Origin: an archaeon
GTDB lineage: Archaea > Iainarchaeota > Iainarchaeia > Iainarchaeales > CSSED10-239
Reading direction: 5' to 3'
Length of the DNA stretch: 9,842 bases
Assembly: GCA_041677685.1 (NCBI GenBank)
Contig: JBAYPN010000026.1
Location: forward strand, 1-9,842
The number at the start of each line of letters is the position of its first letter. The stretch's first letter is position 1. The translations under genes were made by a program, and so were the position numbers. Shown one piece after another: positions 1 to 9,221 of this stretch. Below the pieces are notes generated by a model. That model did not search any database. It was not told the DNA's origin and worked only from the letters and a program-made list of their open reading frames with translations.

Positions 1-44
1 CTTAAATTATTATTAGTAAGCAAAATCTATAATTCTATTTTTTT

Positions 45-127
45 GCAGAGGTGACGGAGTGGTCAAACGTGCTAGCCTGCTAAGCTAGAGTCTTTGGACT
101 ACACGGGTTCGAATCCCGTCCTCTGCG
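45..127 (+). tRNA. tRNA-Ser(GCU), class II with long variable arm, CCA not encoded
   Basis: Hand-folded cloverleaf. Acceptor GCAGAGG/CCTCTGC has 7/7 pairs. D-stem ACG/CGT. Anticodon stem CTAGC/GCTAG with loop CTGCTAA (anticodon GCT). Variable arm AGTC-TTTG-GACT. T-arm ACGGG-TTCGAAT-CCCGT. Discriminator is G. Confidence 0.9.
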
Positions 128-180
128 TAACCGGTTTCGCTCGGTTAATGCGCAATGGTTGTAAGCAGTTGACACCCAAT
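81..180. repeat. Left copy of a perfect 100-bp direct repeat (candidate attL): 3' 47 nt of tRNA-Ser plus 53 nt of downstream tail
   Basis: 81-180 is base-for-base identical to 4368-4467 (offset 4287). Weaker similarity extends 5 more bp leftward (CCTGC vs CTTGT, two C-to-T differences). Identity stops at ...acccaat, followed by ggtaag on the left and agattc on the right. Confidence 0.9.
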
Positions 181-825
181 GGTAAGCAGTTTGCTGTAAG
201 TAGCTTTAAACAGTGGCTTTATAACAAAAAGTTTGTAAAAGACTATGAAGTTGGATTAATTAACAAATTATCCTTATTATTTGTAAAAGAGCAAAAACAT
301 ACGTATACTTTTTCTGAGCTATCTGATATAATTAAAATAAAATTAGAACAGATAAATGAAGACAAATATCTTAATAGATTAGTAAGACAGATCTTAAATT
401 ATTTGTTAGAAAGTGATATTGTATCTGATAATGATGTGTCTTATATTAAAAAGAAATTAAAAACTAAGCAATATAATGCTGATAACTATGTACCTACAGA
501 CTATGAAATACAGCAAACCCTTTTACAATTAACTCTAAAAAATCTTAAGGAAATGGGTTTAAATGAAAAAGAACTTTCTCAATTTAAGGAATATTGGATT
601 CCTGAACTTAATGGTTCTAAATATTATGTTATAAAATTATTATCTGATGATTTTTTATCTGAAAATATGAATCTTTTAGTATCTCCAACTCCAGATACAA
701 TGATAAGGTTAAATTTTTATTTTAAGGGTGTAGATAATATTGTTAAGTTAGAAGAGCCTGTTATTACAACCCCTGTAAGAAATGGTTTTACTGTTGTTGA
801 ATGGGGTGGAATCTTAGAAGAGTGA
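148..825 (+). CDS. Hypothetical protein in the integrase position of the island; possible degenerate SSV-type tyrosine recombinase (core-binding domain plus mutated box I, no C-terminal catalytic half)
   Basis: This is track ORF 94-825. I prefer the first in-frame ATG at 148, because the TTG at 94 lies inside the tRNA. The frame is open from 76, through the tRNA T-arm (TGSNPV = acg ggt tcg aat ccc gtc). NADNYVPTDYEIQQTLLQL followed by EMGLNEKELSQFKEY resembles the xDxY[IV]PTxxEIxxTLxL ... G[VL]RxxE[IL] region of archaeal integrases, but with Asn where the catalytic Arg is expected. I saw no HxxR or catalytic Tyr region. Confidence 0.55.
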   Translation: MRNGCKQLTPNGKQFAVSSFKQWLYNKKFVKDYEVGLINKLSLLFVKEQKHTYTFSELSDIIKIKLEQINEDKYLNRLVRQILNYLLESDIVSDNDVSYIKKKLKTKQYNADNYVPTDYEIQQTLLQLTLKNLKEMGLNEKELSQFKEYWIPELNGSKYYVIKLLSDDFLSENMNLLVSPTPDTMIRLNFYFKGVDNIVKLEEPVITTPVRNGFTVVEWGGILEE

Positions 826-1133
826 TATCTTTTTTTTCTTTTTTCCTCTTCTTTCTTTTTTCTCTTCTTCTTTTTTATTTTTTTGGTCTAATTTTAATTA
901 ATCTTTTTTTCATTAACTCTTTCTCTCAAAACAATTATTTTTGTTATATTGTAAAGCATAATTTTTAAAAAGGCTTTGTTACTTTAAATATAATAGTTGT
1001 TATGTTTTTCTAAAATATTTAGATAAAAAAGAAAAAATCAAAAAGCAAAAAAAACCAAAAAGTAAAAAATAAAATAAAAAAAACTAAAAAAAATAAAATA
1101 AAAGAAATAAAAAAAATAAAAGGTTTTTAATAT

Positions 1134-1727
1134 ATGAAAAAAGATATTACAGTTACTAAAACAAAGAAAGAAACATTAACAATTACAAAAGCAAAGAAAA
1201 AAGATGTTCTTGCAATATACAATTTACAAAAAAACCAGATCCTGGATTTTAATTCTAAGATAAATCATAAGGAAGTTACAGATAACGGTTTTCTAGTTTA
1301 TGAACTATCAATTGATGATTTTTTAAAAGCTGTAAGTTGTAGAAATACTTTTCTTTTTGTTGCAAAAAATAAAGAAGATGTGGTTGGTTATTTTCTTGCA
1401 TACAGTTTAAAAAAATATATTAAACTTAATCCTTCTTTTATAGAAGAAATTGATGTTTCAGGGGATATTTTAAAAGAAAACAAAGTTCTTTTTGGAAAAC
1501 AGTTAGTCTCAAATAGATCTTTTCCAAAGATTGGTGAGTCTTTAAACAAAGAGATGTTCAAGCACACTAAGTCTTTAGGTTTTACTCTCTACATTTGTGA
1601 GATTTTAGAAAAACCAATTAGAAATAAAAGATCTATTGAAAAACATCTCTCTCTTAATCTAAAAAAAATAGGAACCCACAAAGATGATGAAGATCTTCTT
1701 TGGGGTATTTATTCAAAGAAGCTTTAA
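1134..1727 (+). CDS. GNAT-family N-acetyltransferase-like protein
   Basis: 197-aa ORF with an ATG start. GNAT-like layout: ITKAKKKDVLAIYNL (N-terminal strand/helix), NGFLVYELSIDDFLKAV, VVGYFLAY (beta-4-like), and a C-terminal NKRSIEKHLSLNLKKIG resembling the N..S...H.k.GF motif. The Q/RxxGxG/A motif is not canonical. Confidence 0.55.
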   Translation: MKKDITVTKTKKETLTITKAKKKDVLAIYNLQKNQILDFNSKINHKEVTDNGFLVYELSIDDFLKAVSCRNTFLFVAKNKEDVVGYFLAYSLKKYIKLNPSFIEEIDVSGDILKENKVLFGKQLVSNRSFPKIGESLNKEMFKHTKSLGFTLYICEILEKPIRNKRSIEKHLSLNLKKIGTHKDDEDLLWGIYSKKL

Positions 1728-1945
1728 TTTAGTTTAAATCTTCTTTTTATTTCTTTACCATCTGAGATTTGGTTTATCAGTTGGCTGTTTCCCATAAGAT
1801 AAGTGTTTGCACTCTCAAGGGAGTTTATAACATTTGTTTTCTTACCAATCTCTATTTCAACAGAAAGATATTTGATCAAGTCTCTTAGGCCTGCAAGATT
1901 AATAGCTCCTGCCTCATATTTACTGTAAAGAGATTTTAATATCAT
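1724..1945 (-). CDS. Hypothetical small protein; possibly the 3' remnant of a longer decayed gene
   Basis: 73-aa ORF convergent with, and 4 bp overlapping, the GNAT gene. The same frame stays open upstream to 2089 without any ATG/GTG/TTG. It continues past an in-frame TAA (2090-2092) for about 35 more codons. No motif recognised. Confidence 0.3.
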   Translation of the reverse strand: MILKSLYSKYEAGAINLAGLRDLIKYLSVEIEIGKKTNVINSLESANTYLMGNSQLINQISDGKEIKRRFKLN

Positions 1946-2027
1946 TTCTCTTGCTTGTTTAGTTTCTGCAACAGTTCCAAATGTTTTTAGTTGATTTTTA
2001 ATAATCTCGTTAAACTTTATAGATTGG

Positions 2028-2249
2028 ATGTTTGCAATTTCTTTGTTTATATGTCTTGCTTTATTTTTATTTTCAAAATATTTAGCCTCTTATGACAAAG
2101 AAATATATCTTAAATCTTTCAATTGGTTTTTAATAACCTTAGGGGGTTCTATCTTAATGCTCTTCTTGTTTGGAATGACTGGTGTTTTTGAGGTTTACTT
2201 TTTTGTTTTTCTCTCAATCTTTTTATTAATACTTAATAGACATAAATAA
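2028..2249 (+). CDS. Hypothetical small membrane protein (two or three hydrophobic segments); may be spurious
   Basis: 73-aa, very hydrophobic, T-rich ORF. Its 5' end overlaps the open minus-strand frame 1724-2089, so only one of the two is likely to be real. Confidence 0.25.
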   Translation: MFAISLFICLALFLFSKYLASYDKEIYLKSFNWFLITLGGSILMLFLFGMTGVFEVYFFVFLSIFLLILNRHK

Positions 2250-2315: not shown

Positions 2316-2398
2316 GCAGGGTTTCCCGAGCGGTCAAACGCGCTAGCCTGCTAAGCTAGAGTCTCACGACTACCTGGGTTCAAATCCCAGTCTCTGCG
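2316..2398 (+). tRNA. tRNA-Ser(GCU)-like gene with chimeric Leu/Ser architecture; possibly a tRNA pseudogene
   Basis: Anticodon arm CTAGC-CTGCTAA-GCTAG is identical to tRNA-Ser 45-127. Variable arm AGTC-TCAC-GACT and T-arm CTGGG-TTCAAAT-CCCAG are sound, and the discriminator is G. However, nt 1-23 are identical to nt 1-23 of tRNA-Leu (9140-9162). This leaves the D-stem as CCC vs CGC (1 of 3 pairs) and the acceptor stem with G5-T and a T7-T mismatch. Confidence 0.6.
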
Positions 2399-2553
2399 CT
2401 TTAACTTTTCGCCAGGTTGACAGGTATTTGTTTTAACCTGTAAATTGATTTAACTATTTTTTTGAAAAAAATATATTTGTAAAGTATTTTGTGTTTTGTA
2501 TATAAAAATAAAAAAATACCTTATATCTTTAAAAATATTATGATGTAAAATTT

Positions 2554-3550
2554 GGACTTGTAGAAATCCTATTCAGAAATAAACATCCACAAACAAAATA
2601 CTTTTTGTTTGTATTTTCCAAGTATTGTTATATTGTATGCTAATACTTTCAAGATAACCTGCTTTTGCTGGTTATCTTGCTTTCTTGAAGTTACAAAATC
2701 TCCAAACCTTCTTTTTACTTCCGATATTACCGATTCAACTATCGATCTTTTCCGATACACATTTTTTCTAAATCTTTTTTTTGCTTTAATTTTTTTTTTT
2801 TGTTATCCGTTCTAGTTTTTCCAAAGCATCTAAAGTCAATATGATTTTTAATATTATTATCCCAACAAAACTCTCTAAGTTCTATTGAGTCACATCCTCT
2901 ATCCGCTAAAACACAACTAAGCTTTTGTTTTATTGGTTTTATGGGTGGAATAAAAAAATGCGAATCATGTTTTCTATGATTATATGTTTCAATATTTAAA
3001 ATAAGCTTTGTATATAAATCTTTTAATATATGTGTGTTAATATAGTTTTTATATCCTTTATTAACACCATATTTATTTTGATAGTACATTGATGGGTGTG
3101 TGTTGTCAAATCCTGTTCCATCAATTGCAGATTTAATATTTGTTAAATTTAATATTTTATAACACACCCTTACTAGCTTTGCCAGTAAGTCTTTATCAAA
3201 TCTTGAAATAAACTTTTGTAAGGTTGTAAAGTGTGGTATTTTAACAAACTTAACATCTGTCTGATGTTAAGGTTATCTGCAAGCTCTATAAGTCCTCTGT
3301 AGGATTGTTTATATTTTTCTTTTAAAACAAGTAAAAACACATGTACAAAGTTATTGTATATCCCATTTAAGTATTTAGAAAATCTAAAAGGTAGTCTACT
3401 TTCACTAAATACTCTCTCAACCATCTTATAGAAACCAATAAAAAATATTTGTTTTAATATTATATTGTTCATATTTATCAAATAATATATAGATGCAAAT
3501 CTATGTATTATTTATGGACACTTTAAGAAAAAGAAGGGTTTTACAAGCCC
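2554..3550 (-). mobile_element. Decayed insertion sequence, IS4/IS5 superfamily (IS903-like features: about 1 kb, GG-initiated inverted repeats, about 9-bp target duplication)
   Basis: Terminal inverted repeats are GGACTTGTAGAA (2554-2565) and the reverse complement of 3539-3550, GGGCTTGTAAAA (10/12 match). Flanking direct repeats are GTAAAATTT (2545-2553) and GTAAAAATTT (3551-3560). The element encloses the fragmented DDE transposase. Confidence 0.7.
2569..3481 (-). pseudogene. DDE transposase (IS4/IS5-type, DDE_Tnp_1-like) split by two frameshifts
   Basis: Three consecutive minus-strand ORFs in different frames. 3173-3481 carries the N-terminal SYRGLIELADNLNIRQ segment; the KIPHFTTLQKFISRF motif is readable only after a frame change near 3240-3260. 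2739-3167 carries AIDGTGF (D1) and VLADRGCDS (D2). 2569-2760 carries YRKRSIVESVISEVKRRFG (E). The second shift can be repaired by slippage in the A12 run (T12 on the plus strand, 2790-2801). Confidence 0.8.
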
Positions 3551-3589: not shown

Positions 3590-4327
3590 ATGAATAATGC
3601 TATTAAAGAACAATATGATATTAAAGCAAATAAGTATAATTCTTTAAGAGAGGTTCTTCATGTAAAGTATGTTAAAAGACCTTCGATTGAAGCTTATTTT
3701 TCCTTTAATTTAAAAGGTAAAAGAGTATTAGATTTAGCTTGTGGTGAAGGTGAGATGAGTAGATATTTGTATAAGAAAGGAGCAATTGTGACTGGGTTAG
3801 ATAACTCTAAGGAACTAATATCTATTGCTAAAGATAAAAATATAAAATTTGACACAGATATAAATTATCTGCATGGAGATGGCTTTAAACTACAAAATAT
3901 TAATCAAAAATTTGATTTTATTGTAGGGATTTATTTTCTAAATTATGTTTCTTCTAAAAGAAAATTAAATGATTTTTTAAAATTATCAAAAAACTTTCTA
4001 AAATCTGATTCAAAAATGATTTTTTTAATTCCTGATTATGATTTCAGAAAATATTATAATAATTATGGTATAGAATCTTTTACACCTAAAAACGAAGGAG
4101 ATAAACTTAAGTTTAAAATATTTCATGATGATGGGCAACTTGGAATCGAATTAGAATGTTTTTATTGGAAAATGAAAACTTATGAAACTGCATTTAAAGA
4201 TGCAGGCTTTAAATTTAGAGAACATGCTTTAATAATTTCACAAGAAGGTCTAAAAAAATATAGTACTAAATTTTGGACTGAATTGAAAGCAAATCCGATC
4301 TTCAAAATCTATGAACTTAGTTTGTAG
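3590..4327 (+). CDS. Class I SAM-dependent methyltransferase
   Basis: 245-aa ORF. Motif I is VLDLACGEGEMS (from 3725), followed by an acidic residue after beta-2 (TGLDNS) and post-I/II-like HGDGFKL ... FDFIVGIYFLNYV. A GGTGGA Shine-Dalgarno-like element (3579-3584) lies 5 nt upstream of the ATG. Confidence 0.85.
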   Translation: MNNAIKEQYDIKANKYNSLREVLHVKYVKRPSIEAYFSFNLKGKRVLDLACGEGEMSRYLYKKGAIVTGLDNSKELISIAKDKNIKFDTDINYLHGDGFKLQNINQKFDFIVGIYFLNYVSSKRKLNDFLKLSKNFLKSDSKMIFLIPDYDFRKYYNNYGIESFTPKNEGDKLKFKIFHDDGQLGIELECFYWKMKTYETAFKDAGFKFREHALIISQEGLKKYSTKFWTELKANPIFKIYELSL

Positions 4328-4367
4328 ATTTTATTTCTCTAAAATCACTTAATTTATCTACCCTTGT

Positions 4368-4414
4368 TAAGCTAGAGTCTTTGGACTACACGGGTTCGAA
4401 TCCCGTCCTCTGCG
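4368..4414 (+). other. Orphan 3' fragment of tRNA-Ser(GCU) (anticodon-loop 3' side through discriminator), not a functional tRNA
   Basis: Matches tRNA positions 37-83 of the gene at 45-127. No acceptor 5' strand or D-arm lies upstream. Confidence 0.9.
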
Positions 4415-4467
4415 TAACCGGTTTCGCTCGGTTAATGCGCAATGGTTGTAAGCAGTTGACACCCAAT
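4368..4467. repeat. Right copy of the perfect 100-bp direct repeat (candidate attR)
   Basis: Identical to 81-180. It is preceded by unrelated sequence (the methyltransferase 3' flank) rather than a tRNA 5' half. Confidence 0.9.
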
Positions 4468-4544
4468 AGATTCTCTGAGTTAACAGATGATTTTATTTAA
4501 GATTTTAAAATATATTGGTAATTGATTGAAAATTTTGATTTGTT

Positions 4545-5209: not shown

Positions 5210-5824
5210 TCAACAAGAACCTTCATGAACAATTGGGATGTCTCCAGCTACACATGGATTTGAGTAAGTAACTCCATTTTCTCCACATACAGGGTTAAAC
5301 TCTCTTGTACATGCTTTATCTTGATAGATATACTTTCCAGCTTCACATTCTCCTCTGTAAAACATCCATTCTTCACACTCTGAATTGTCTTGAAAAACAC
5401 AAACTCCATATTCTCCATTTTGTGAGCTTCTGATATCTACAGTTCCGTTATTATCTTCACAAAATTCTGATGCTGGGTTTGCAAGTTGTGTAGTTTCACA
5501 TTCTCCTTGGTATTCAATTTCTACATCCCCTGCCATACATGCATTTCCGTATGTTACTCCATCAACTCCACATACTGGCATGTACTCTAAGGTGCAGATC
5601 TTATTTTCTTCTAAGTTTTCACATTCTCCTTGGTATTCAATTTCTACATCCCCTGCCATACATGCATTTCCGTATGTTACTCCATCAACTCCACATACTG
5701 GCATGTACTCTAAGGTGCAGGCTTTATAATCATTAGTATTTCCAGGTTTTTGAACAACAAGTAAAATTGCAAGAGCAATTCCAATTAGAAAAACAATTCC
5801 AATTAAATAATATATTTTTTTCAT
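5210..5824 (-). CDS. Membrane-anchored or secreted protein with three Kazal-like inhibitor domains and a central DUF333 (COG3042-like) domain
   Basis: I prefer the ATG at 5824 (MKKIYYLIGIVFLIGIALAILLVV signal/anchor) because AAAGGAGAT lies 7-8 nt upstream; the track start at 5866 has no such element. Two identical CTLEYMPVCGVDGVTYGNACMAGDVEIEYQGEC modules and one CTREFNPVCGENGVTYSNPCVAGDIPIVHEGSC module fit the Kazal-like pattern C..PVCG.DG.TY.N.C......G.C. NPASEFCEDNNGTVDI...GVCVFQDNSECEEWMFYRGEC fits DUF333. Confidence 0.85.
   Translation of the reverse strand: MKKIYYLIGIVFLIGIALAILLVVQKPGNTNDYKACTLEYMPVCGVDGVTYGNACMAGDVEIEYQGECENLEENKICTLEYMPVCGVDGVTYGNACMAGDVEIEYQGECETTQLANPASEFCEDNNGTVDIRSSQNGEYGVCVFQDNSECEEWMFYRGECEAGKYIYQDKACTREFNPVCGENGVTYSNPCVAGDIPIVHEGSC
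5494..5720. repeat. Perfect 104-bp intragenic duplication (5494-5597 and 5617-5720), period 123 bp = 41 codons
   Basis: The two copies are identical base for base and separated by 19 bp. Each encodes one Kazal-like module. Confidence 0.95.
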
Positions 5825-9139: not shown

Positions 9140-9221
9140 GCAGGGTTTCCCGAGCGGTCAAAGGGGATGGACTCAAAATCCATTGCTTAGTGCTTCACAG
9201 GTTCGAATCCTGTACCCTGCA
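9140..9221 (+). tRNA. tRNA-Leu(CAA), class II, CCA not encoded
   Basis: Acceptor GCAGGGT/ACCCTGC has 7/7 pairs. D-stem CCC/GGG. Anticodon stem ATGGA/TCCAT with loop CTCAAAA (anticodon CAA). 13-nt variable region. T-arm ACAGG-TTCGAAT-CCTGT. Discriminator is A. Confidence 0.85.

Follow-up and report, generated by a model that had tools for sequence, protein, structure and literature searches.

The open reading frame (ORF) lying directly behind tRNA-Ser(GCT) in contig JBAYPN010000026.1 (assembly GCA_041677685.1 of the Iainarchaeales archaeon CSSED10-239; the whole analysed stretch of 9,842 nucleotides is referred to below as the window) is very probably a fusion pseudogene that emerged by decay of an integrated mobile element and combines the 5′ part of Int(C), the larger half of an SSV-type integrase gene, with the 3′ end of a gene from an unrelated family, designated here by its member P0005. 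The preliminary description of this locus, based on the letters of the sequence, placed the ORF at the left attachment (att) site of a genomic island and offered two readings, namely an SSV-type integrase degenerated in its catalytic part or a recombinase of an unrecognised kind. Derivation of the 5′ part from an SSV-type enzyme was fully supported by what follows, and immobilisation of the island by loss of integrase function is borne out by the absence of both the catalytic domain and Int(N).

Two Genes Joined in One Open Reading Frame

Taken as a whole, the ORF gave nothing meaningful in Pfam, PHROGs, NCBIfam and PDB sequence searches, and its matches to Cas5 and DsbE (E 0.12 and 1.7) were discarded as noise. 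The ORF lacks a database match because its homologues split into two classes, one per half. Proteins of 257-289 aa with PF16795 form the first class, their alignments being confined to the initial 52-59% of the ORF (48-92% identity), and the second includes more than 100 hypothetical proteins of ~200-350 aa aligned solely with the final ~41%, where identity reaches 99% (P0005). The resulting composition of the locus is the following:

148-537, plus strand: 5′ fragment of the Int(C) half of an SSV-type integrase gene, 130 codons, with the frame open from 76
538-543, plus strand: fusion junction AAAAAT, a 6-nt overlap common to both parental sequences
538-825, plus strand: last 95 codons of a P0005-family gene in the native frame, coding for a part of a membrane-anchored protein, not of a recombinase
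826-884, plus strand: CT-rich tract that came with the fragment, being the 3′ flank native to the P0005-family gene

The 5′ part (148-537) shares 95-100% identity with integrase genes located at the same tRNA in related genomes. BLASTN aligned positions 25-543 of the window with positions 1-519 of an intact integrase locus (L008) at 95%, the encoded N-terminal part is 92% identical to intact integrase P0002 over 132 aa, and in hhalign residues 1-130 matched the integrase alignment with 100% probability (E 6e-64; 128 columns, 9-136 of 288). Thus profile comparison, proposed earlier as a check, left the whole product without a Pfam or PDB match and succeeded for its N-terminal part. What has been retained encompasses the N-terminal domain and only the first helix (~17 residues) of the catalytic domain, with all catalytic residues missing. 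The integrase sequence ends ~10 codons ahead of the box I Arg, where intact genes continue with ...NNRLVSLVSLVSGVRKVE..., and residues R...KxxR...Y, all belonging beyond the breakpoint, are absent from the window and ±10 kb. No integrase 3′ half was found within ±10 kb of the ORF, and neither PF16795 nor the SSV1 structure in PDB matches the window ORF itself. Beginning with the box I Arg, the rest of the integrase is missing altogether and has not simply degenerated, and the substitution of this Arg by Asn suggested in the preliminary description came from alignment of non-homologous sequences. The resemblance to SSV1 Int pointed out in that description was partially correct: NADNYVPTDYEIQQTLLQL does align with NADIYIPTLEEIKRTLQL of SSV1 Int via P0002, and the motif NADxYxPTxxEIxxTL was rightly recognised, while the parallel drawn between EMGLNEKELSQF and ESGVRLSEIL is spurious, this stretch belonging to a different gene.

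That gene is represented by positions 538-825, which are 98% identical at the nucleotide and 99% at the amino acid level to P0005 and its locus L007, and 95% identical at the nucleotide level to another locus, L009. In BLASTN the similarity to L007 extends over positions 538-883 (98%), i.e., it includes 58 nt past the stop codon, and in hhalign residues 131-225 matched the P0005 family with E 4e-54 and the integrase profile with a probability of 0.9%. The ORF contains the C-terminal module of the family, GLNEKE..QFKEYW...GFTVVEWGG, and the N-terminal half of P0005 (membrane helix and beta-rich part, KPAxYLYP...YDYLFYEA) is absent from the ORF and ±10 kb. The CT-rich tract noticed previously at the end of the ORF is indeed there, being collinear with L007 to window position 883 and with L009 to 844 and diverging beyond; it is the other gene's own 3′ flank, not a low-complexity end of an integrase.

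In principle, the entire ORF could descend from one integrase gene with the catalytic domain mutated beyond recognition. The integrase origin of the N-terminal half together with the NADNYVPTDYEIQQTL motif and the lack of any visible catalytic motif downstream would be compatible with such a contiguous gene, yet we find it scarcely credible given the near identity of the C-terminal 95 residues, and of the DNA with its 58-nt flank, to the P0005 gene, their negligible score against the integrase profile, and the abrupt end of integrase homology at nt 543. The ~95 C-terminal residues taken earlier for a degenerate catalytic domain are thereby reassigned. An unrecognised recombinase moving the island may be proposed from the position of the ORF, typical for att-adjacent integrases, and from the failure of all whole-ORF searches, but is practically inconceivable: each half has its own well-populated family, the family of the C-terminal half is a widespread cellular membrane-anchored protein, and the chimera, the product of which is 225 aa long, is unique to one near-clonal population.

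The Junction

Integrase homology stops at 543 and homology to the P0005 gene begins at 538 (BLASTN and three-way alignment), so that the peptide encoded over the joint reads ...LQLTLKNLKEMGL.... Contigs of other samples code for this chimeric protein as well (P0121), and at least three further independent assemblies obtained from different samples (L032, L033, and L034) are 99.98-100% identical to the window over 1.1-6.9 kb with the joint 100% identical. The junction is therefore genuine, with 6-nt microhomology, and not an assembly product. Concern about a joint made by the assembler is understandable for a window originating from a metagenome-assembled genome, all the more so that strains with intact integrase co-occur in the same sample series. 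Such an artefact is nevertheless extremely improbable, because an overlap of 6 nt, far below any assembler k-mer, cannot join two contigs, and because the same structure, 2.5-7 kb in extent, recurs in the three assemblies.

A close strain (L035) with 99.7% identity over 6.6 kb upstream carries an intact 272-aa integrase at the same tRNA. Compared with it, the window is 100% identical over nt 1-388, ~93% over 389-500 (mostly synonymous differences), and ~74% over 501-543. From this drop of identity near the joint it follows that the retained integrase fragment may be a mosaic, or its part adjacent to the joint may either derive from another allele or have been remodelled. For the diverged 37-nt patch (501-537), no close DNA match was detected among the compared integrase alleles, only the peptide EIQQTL being common to some of them.

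A second, independent chimera was encountered in L087 (1822-2775, P0035), in which the N-terminal part of a phage portal protein (PF05133) is followed by the C-terminal module of P0005. Its joint, ...SHLIK/FGLNEKE, falls within ~2 codons of that in the window (TL/KNLKEMGLNEKE; slashes mark the joints). In total, two distinct chimeras (3 of 113 listed sequences) occur in the P0005 family, other members keeping the N-terminal half. The near-coincidence of the two joints may be accidental or may reflect a domain boundary or a hot spot.

Integration Site

The elements composing the integration site are positioned as follows:

44-128, plus strand: tRNA-Ser(GCT), the integration target (ARAGORN; Rfam tRNA, 63.6 bits; clean cloverleaf)
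78-180, plus strand: left att copy (attL), the tRNA-Ser 3′ half and a 52-nt trailer encoding the first residues of the integrase frame
4321-4364, plus strand: 15 open codons 5′ of the right att copy, with no start; expected site of Int(N), a stub at most
4365-4467, plus strand: right att copy (attR-like), the tRNA 3′ half, trailer and first 11 integrase codons, breaking off at ...CCCAAT/AG

The two att copies constitute a direct repeat of 103 nt with 99% identity that spans from the tRNA anticodon loop to its 3′ end and the trailer, weaker similarity reaching back to 72 and 4358. The left att sequence is unchanged in the intact-integrase strains L008 and L035, and tRNA-Ser(GCT) immediately precedes the integrase also in L001-L005, L008, L035, L036, and others. 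Being limited by TAG at 73-75, the frame is open from 76 to TGA at 823-825 with ATG at 148; codons 1-11 counted from this ATG lie inside the repeat, and the frame extends back through the tRNA T-arm, remaining open over the whole att. All coordinates given for this arrangement in the preliminary description hold, as does the presence of att inside the int reading frame, characteristic of SSV-type enzymes and found likewise in related loci. The 103-nt repeat at 99% identity and the 130-codon integrase match are far beyond chance.

Next to the right repeat, the corresponding frame opens no earlier than 4321 with no ATG, GTG, or TTG ahead of the repeat, in agreement with the earlier statement that an Int(N) partner is missing there. 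The methyltransferase gene ends at 4327, beside the right att copy. Within the att trailer (window 129-190 and 4416-4470), nested near-duplicates ...GCGCAAT GG TTGTAAGCAG and ...ACCCAAT GG TAAGCAG are seen, the right edge of att identity always being ...CAAT/. In L009 (5064-5240), two att remnants stand in tandem, both ending with CAAT/AG and followed by the same 34 nt. These duplicates and remnants look like scars of repeated integration and excision.

Integrase Family of the Intact Relatives

Intact relatives of the 5′ part match PF16795 (Phage_integr_3) with E ~1e-28 over aa 114-271 (P0002, P0003, and P0007 were positive) and catalytic-domain structures of SSV1 Int (3UXU, 3VCF, and 4DKS) with E from 2e-9 to 6e-9. 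The R...KxxR...Y set, which is the signature of SSV1-type enzymes (PMC8371274), is invariant in the aligned intact proteins (SGVRKVE, KYCRKW, and NHY), so that the full-length homologues do display, as had been anticipated, the C-terminus missing from the window with the complete signature. An exhaustive HMMER search returned 376 clusters at 50% identity, and a scan of IMG/VR gave no match to this integrase family. In 28 of 36 metagenomic loci the integrase gene abuts or overlaps the tRNA 3′ end, and Ser-GCT, Ser-GGA, Met, Thr-GGT, Asp, and Arg tRNAs serve as targets across loci. Wherever the contig includes the upstream region of a related locus, no stop interrupts the integrase frame across the tRNA 3′ half.

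Several observations bear on the mode of integration. In ten loci, the interval from the stop within the tRNA to the conserved region contains neither ATG nor GTG nor TTG. Two complete elements (L060 and L045) possess a short ORF with a start codon just 5′ of the second att copy, in frame with the tRNA-side gene across att. This segment shows 40% identity (52 aa; E 4e-9) to an N-terminus that in L062, a locus lacking the whole tRNA, is continuous with the integrase, and further Int(N) homologues were revealed at the far ends of L074 and L066. The proteins fall into two length classes, one of ~260-290 aa starting at the query start and another of ~310-350 aa with 40-70 additional N-terminal residues. 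P0151, representing the long class, has the tRNA-encoded “GSNPG” within one long ORF, and full-length forms comprise 314-351 aa. From the startless loci, the far-end Int(N) segments (~20-60 aa in this family), and the unsplit full-length forms, it appears that the family is SSV-type and self-splitting, and the tRNA-side gene would therefore be Int(C), the larger half. Only truncated Int(C) is present in the window, with no separate Int(N) partner seen; Int(N)-like sequence, present in L060, L045, L074, L066, and L062, was not detected within ±10 kb of the window.

Alternatively, the gene may start within att, at ATG 148 in the window, and stay whole upon integration, as lambda or pNOB8-type integrases do, making att in the ORF incidental. 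The lineage of the window, L008, and L035 indeed has ATG (148) and TTG (169) in the trailer, which yield proteins of 272-278 aa with the full catalytic domain. We nevertheless regard an integrase of this kind as unlikely in view of the ten loci devoid of any start codon, of Int(N) segments residing at the far end in four loci and contiguous in L062 and P0151, and of the bimodal lengths, where the longer forms show the N-terminal offset.

In L062 (4768-5837), a contiguous Int(N)-att-Int(C) gene contains only the tRNA-Thr 3′ half and probably represents the unintegrated form. In its att region, a shift of one base separates the frames of Int(N) and Int(C), for which sequencing error or decay are possible reasons. 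Similarity of Int(N) to CcdA (ribbon-helix-helix; E 0.007) is below threshold and serves as a hint only. Within the flanking DNA compared, no second att copy was observed in L002, L003, L004, L036, L043, and L078. Islands with intact integrase also contain bAvd genes (PF05635/PF22296; L002 5651-5995 and L003 14081-14434) along with Mrr-type restriction and AbiEii genes, bAvd being the accessory protein of diversity-generating retroelements.

The Donor of the 3′ Half

P0005 is a protein of 212 aa with an N-terminal membrane helix, its family being marked by the C-terminal GFTVVEWGG motif and distributed among DPANN archaea, Ignavibacteria, Cloacimonadota, and Bacteroidota. The family has no Pfam entry, and its confident AlphaFold 2 (AF2) model (pLDDT 88.6) gave no PDB fold match with E below 0.3. 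By gene order, P0005 is a cellular gene native to the tRNA-Ser neighbourhood, since in relatives its normal position is a few hundred bases downstream of the same tRNA-Ser locus. In L009, labelled as Candidatus ainarchaeum sp., tRNA-Ser is followed by a small island, two att remnants, a Kazal-domain gene, and the P0005 gene, and in L010 the P0005 gene begins 90 nt past tRNA-Ser. In the window the Kazal gene is found to the right of the second att copy, and synteny with L009 ends ~50-100 nt before the expected start of the P0005 gene.

Contents of the Island and Their Rearrangements

Between the att copies, the window harbours the fusion ORF, ORF197 with a gene fragment, a hybrid tRNA, a transposase of the IS5 type (IS, insertion sequence) in three pieces, and an S-adenosylmethionine (SAM) methyltransferase. 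Two of these features are specified as:

2316-2399, plus strand: hybrid tRNA, called as tRNA-Ser(GCT) (alignment; BLASTN to L086; Rfam 32.2 bits; 6-bp acceptor stem)
2569-3481, minus strand: IS5-type (DDE_Tnp_1) transposase in three ORFs (Pfam PF01609 on 2739-3167 and 2569-2760)

ORF197 and the fragment ORF73 on the minus strand (window 1134-2074) have counterparts in L086 (9873-10922), a related genome with the tRNA-Ser site unoccupied, where they are located directly 3′ of tRNA-Leu(CAA); by this criterion they are host genes now placed between the att copies. The DUF134/NifB-like/DUF5320 block following tRNA-Leu is inverted in the window relative to L086. The hybrid tRNA begins with 23 nt of tRNA-Leu(CAA) that coincide exactly with window 9140-9162, and these, together with the 44-nt upstream flank (2272-2315), likewise of tRNA-Leu origin, are collinear with L086 9830-9895. 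The remainder corresponds to the 3′ two-thirds of tRNA-Ser(GCT) with the native CTTTAA trailer, as in L086 and L009. Judging from this composition, the hybrid tRNA marks a further rearrangement. In the complete element L060, Int(C) directly adjoins an intact 297-aa relative of the transposase, and the IS5-type transposase has probably contributed to rearranging the island.

Starting from an ancestor resembling L009/L086, four routes to the present map were considered, namely single deletion, tandem duplication between tRNA-Ser and tRNA-Leu, one inversion, and circle excision with re-integration, and none of them fits all junctions.

Three local peculiarities were also registered. The Kazal/DUF333 gene (window 5494-5727, minus strand) has a 123-nt internal repeat with a copy number differing between the window and the otherwise identical L032, the proteins being of 218 aa (from a TTG start) and 163 aa, respectively. 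An imperfect 54-nt inverted repeat is formed by the CT-rich 831-884 and the A-rich 1023-1121 tracts, which are 72% complementary and flank 885-1022. The A-rich tract gives a lysine-rich N-terminal extension to ORF197, and the L086 homologue is without this extension.

Origin and Fate of the Fusion

The comparisons show that tRNA-Ser(GCT) of this DPANN host once received an element whose tyrosine integrase was of the SSV (“suicidal”) type. As in SSV1, such insertion leaves Int(C) pointing away from the tRNA, while a short Int(N) comes to lie at the opposite end of the inserted DNA. Later, Int(C) was severed past codon ~130, immediately ahead of the box I Arg, and joined in frame to the last 95 codons and 3′ flank of the P0005 gene at the 6-nt microhomology. 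Illegitimate, microhomology-mediated recombination is the presumed source of the joint, and deletion across the rest of the element would be the simplest single event. At least two later events have to be supposed, i.e., tRNA-Leu/tRNA-Ser recombination giving the hybrid tRNA and decay of the IS, and the present place of the second att copy and the Kazal gene, to the right, would be due to IS activity or to re-integration.

Several facts do not sit easily with this scenario. Single deletion from Int(C) to the P0005 gene fails to explain the map, since the second att copy, ORF173, and the Kazal gene are now to the right of the fragment and the tRNA-Leu-adjacent host genes of L086 are found inside the “island”; the last ~40 nt before the joint, as described above, match the closest alleles at just ~74% identity. 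The fusion keeps the reading frame and contains no internal stop, although a joint is in frame by chance in ~1 of 3 cases, and a translated chimeric protein is possible. The ratio of non-synonymous to synonymous substitution rates (dN/dS) relative to L008 equals 0.27; most likely, this value reflects divergence between functional alleles predating the truncation.

One may go further and ascribe to a translated fusion a new non-catalytic role, in which its N-terminal domain binds att DNA or the incoming integrase and acts as a regulator or in a dominant-negative manner. Besides the intact frame with its ATG, such a protein would be favoured by the location of the joint near the predicted boundary of the two halves of the P0005 fold and by the break of the portal protein chimera at almost the same place. 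These arguments are opposed by the lack of conservation beyond the near-clonal population, which leaves no selective signal, by the native start and promoter (in Int(N)) missing in the integrated state, and by the fragment beginning within a predicted helix, so that we consider a functional fusion very unlikely. Functionally, the ORF is most likely a pseudogene.

Because no catalytic residue and no Int(N) partner are available, we infer that the ORF product cannot recombine DNA and that the island, with its two att copies kept, would be immobile on its own. The most that may be expected is mobilisation in trans by the intact integrase of some related element, and a potential source of such activity is known from the 99.7%-identical strain (L035), which has an intact integrase at the same site.

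Comparison with Known Systems

Intact relatives share with SSV1 and with suicidal SSV-type integrases of pTN3 and pT26-2 (PF16795), as defined in PMC8371274 and PMC7253208, the catalytic domain with R...KxxR...Y, a tRNA target, att inside the ORF, and splitting into Int(N) and Int(C) on integration. The window copy, in contrast, has neither the catalytic domain nor Int(N). Its att of 103 nt exceeds the typical 40-50 bp (PMC8371274). Suicidal integrases are found mainly in hyperthermophiles, with five mesophilic cases in Methanosarcinales (PMC7253208, PMC8371274), whereas the hosts considered here are DPANN archaea from non-thermal metagenomes. Unlike SSV1, the DPANN clade has att very near the 5′ end of the gene, with Int(N) of only ~20-60 aa. 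For SSV1, Int(N) is reportedly about 65 aa long. Since the catalytic features of the family are not found in it, the window ORF should be filed as an integrase fragment by descent, not as a member of the SSV-type family.

Closer parallels are provided by int(C) and int(N) pseudogenes of Thermococcales and Sulfolobales (Badel et al. 2020), which similarly are decaying chromosomal split halves of mosaic ancestry. In chimeric int pseudogenes of Thermococcales, however, the partners are other integrase halves (PMC7253208), while here the partner is an unrelated cellular gene; unlike hybrid integrases (Badel et al. 2020), the fusion in the window is a dead end and not a new integrase. pNOB8-type and lambda-type integrases also have the gene beside the tRNA-proximal att copy and direct repeats from the tRNA 3′ end, but their genes stay intact and carry YxxR or HxxR, whereas the relatives studied here are split and carry KxxR (KYCRKW). 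Gene capture at archaeal att sites, as reported by She et al. (cited in PMC8371274), resembles the situation in the window, with ORF197 and fragments of the P0005 gene and tRNA-Leu lying between two att copies. The int::P0005 joint differs from capture as cited there in being a microhomology junction and not an att crossover.

Implications

In kind, the finding is ordinary: a decayed integrase fused to a neighbour gene. For annotation it means that the ORF should be called neither an integrase nor a new recombinase and that the island should be regarded as a decayed remnant. With respect to the family, we see about an even chance that mesophilic DPANN archaea host a large clade of undescribed self-splitting SSV-type integrases (376 clusters, at least six tRNA targets, very short Int(N), and long att), the decayed copies of which keep both att sites and may be re-mobilised in trans together with captured host genes. 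Full-text literature search, the coverage of which is incomplete and gives no proof of novelty, found no description of SSV-type integrases in DPANN archaea. As the related loci show, the SSV-type integration module, which the literature treats as a hallmark of hyperthermophiles (PMC7253208, PMC8371274), is common in DPANN archaea from non-thermal habitats, where the tRNA-Ser/tRNA-Leu neighbourhood of these tiny genomes becomes, through its action, a mosaic in which remnants of elements, hybrid tRNAs, and displaced host genes stand side by side. Intact, truncated, and empty sites in near-identical or related genomes provide a natural series in which decay of an element and its rescue in trans may be followed.

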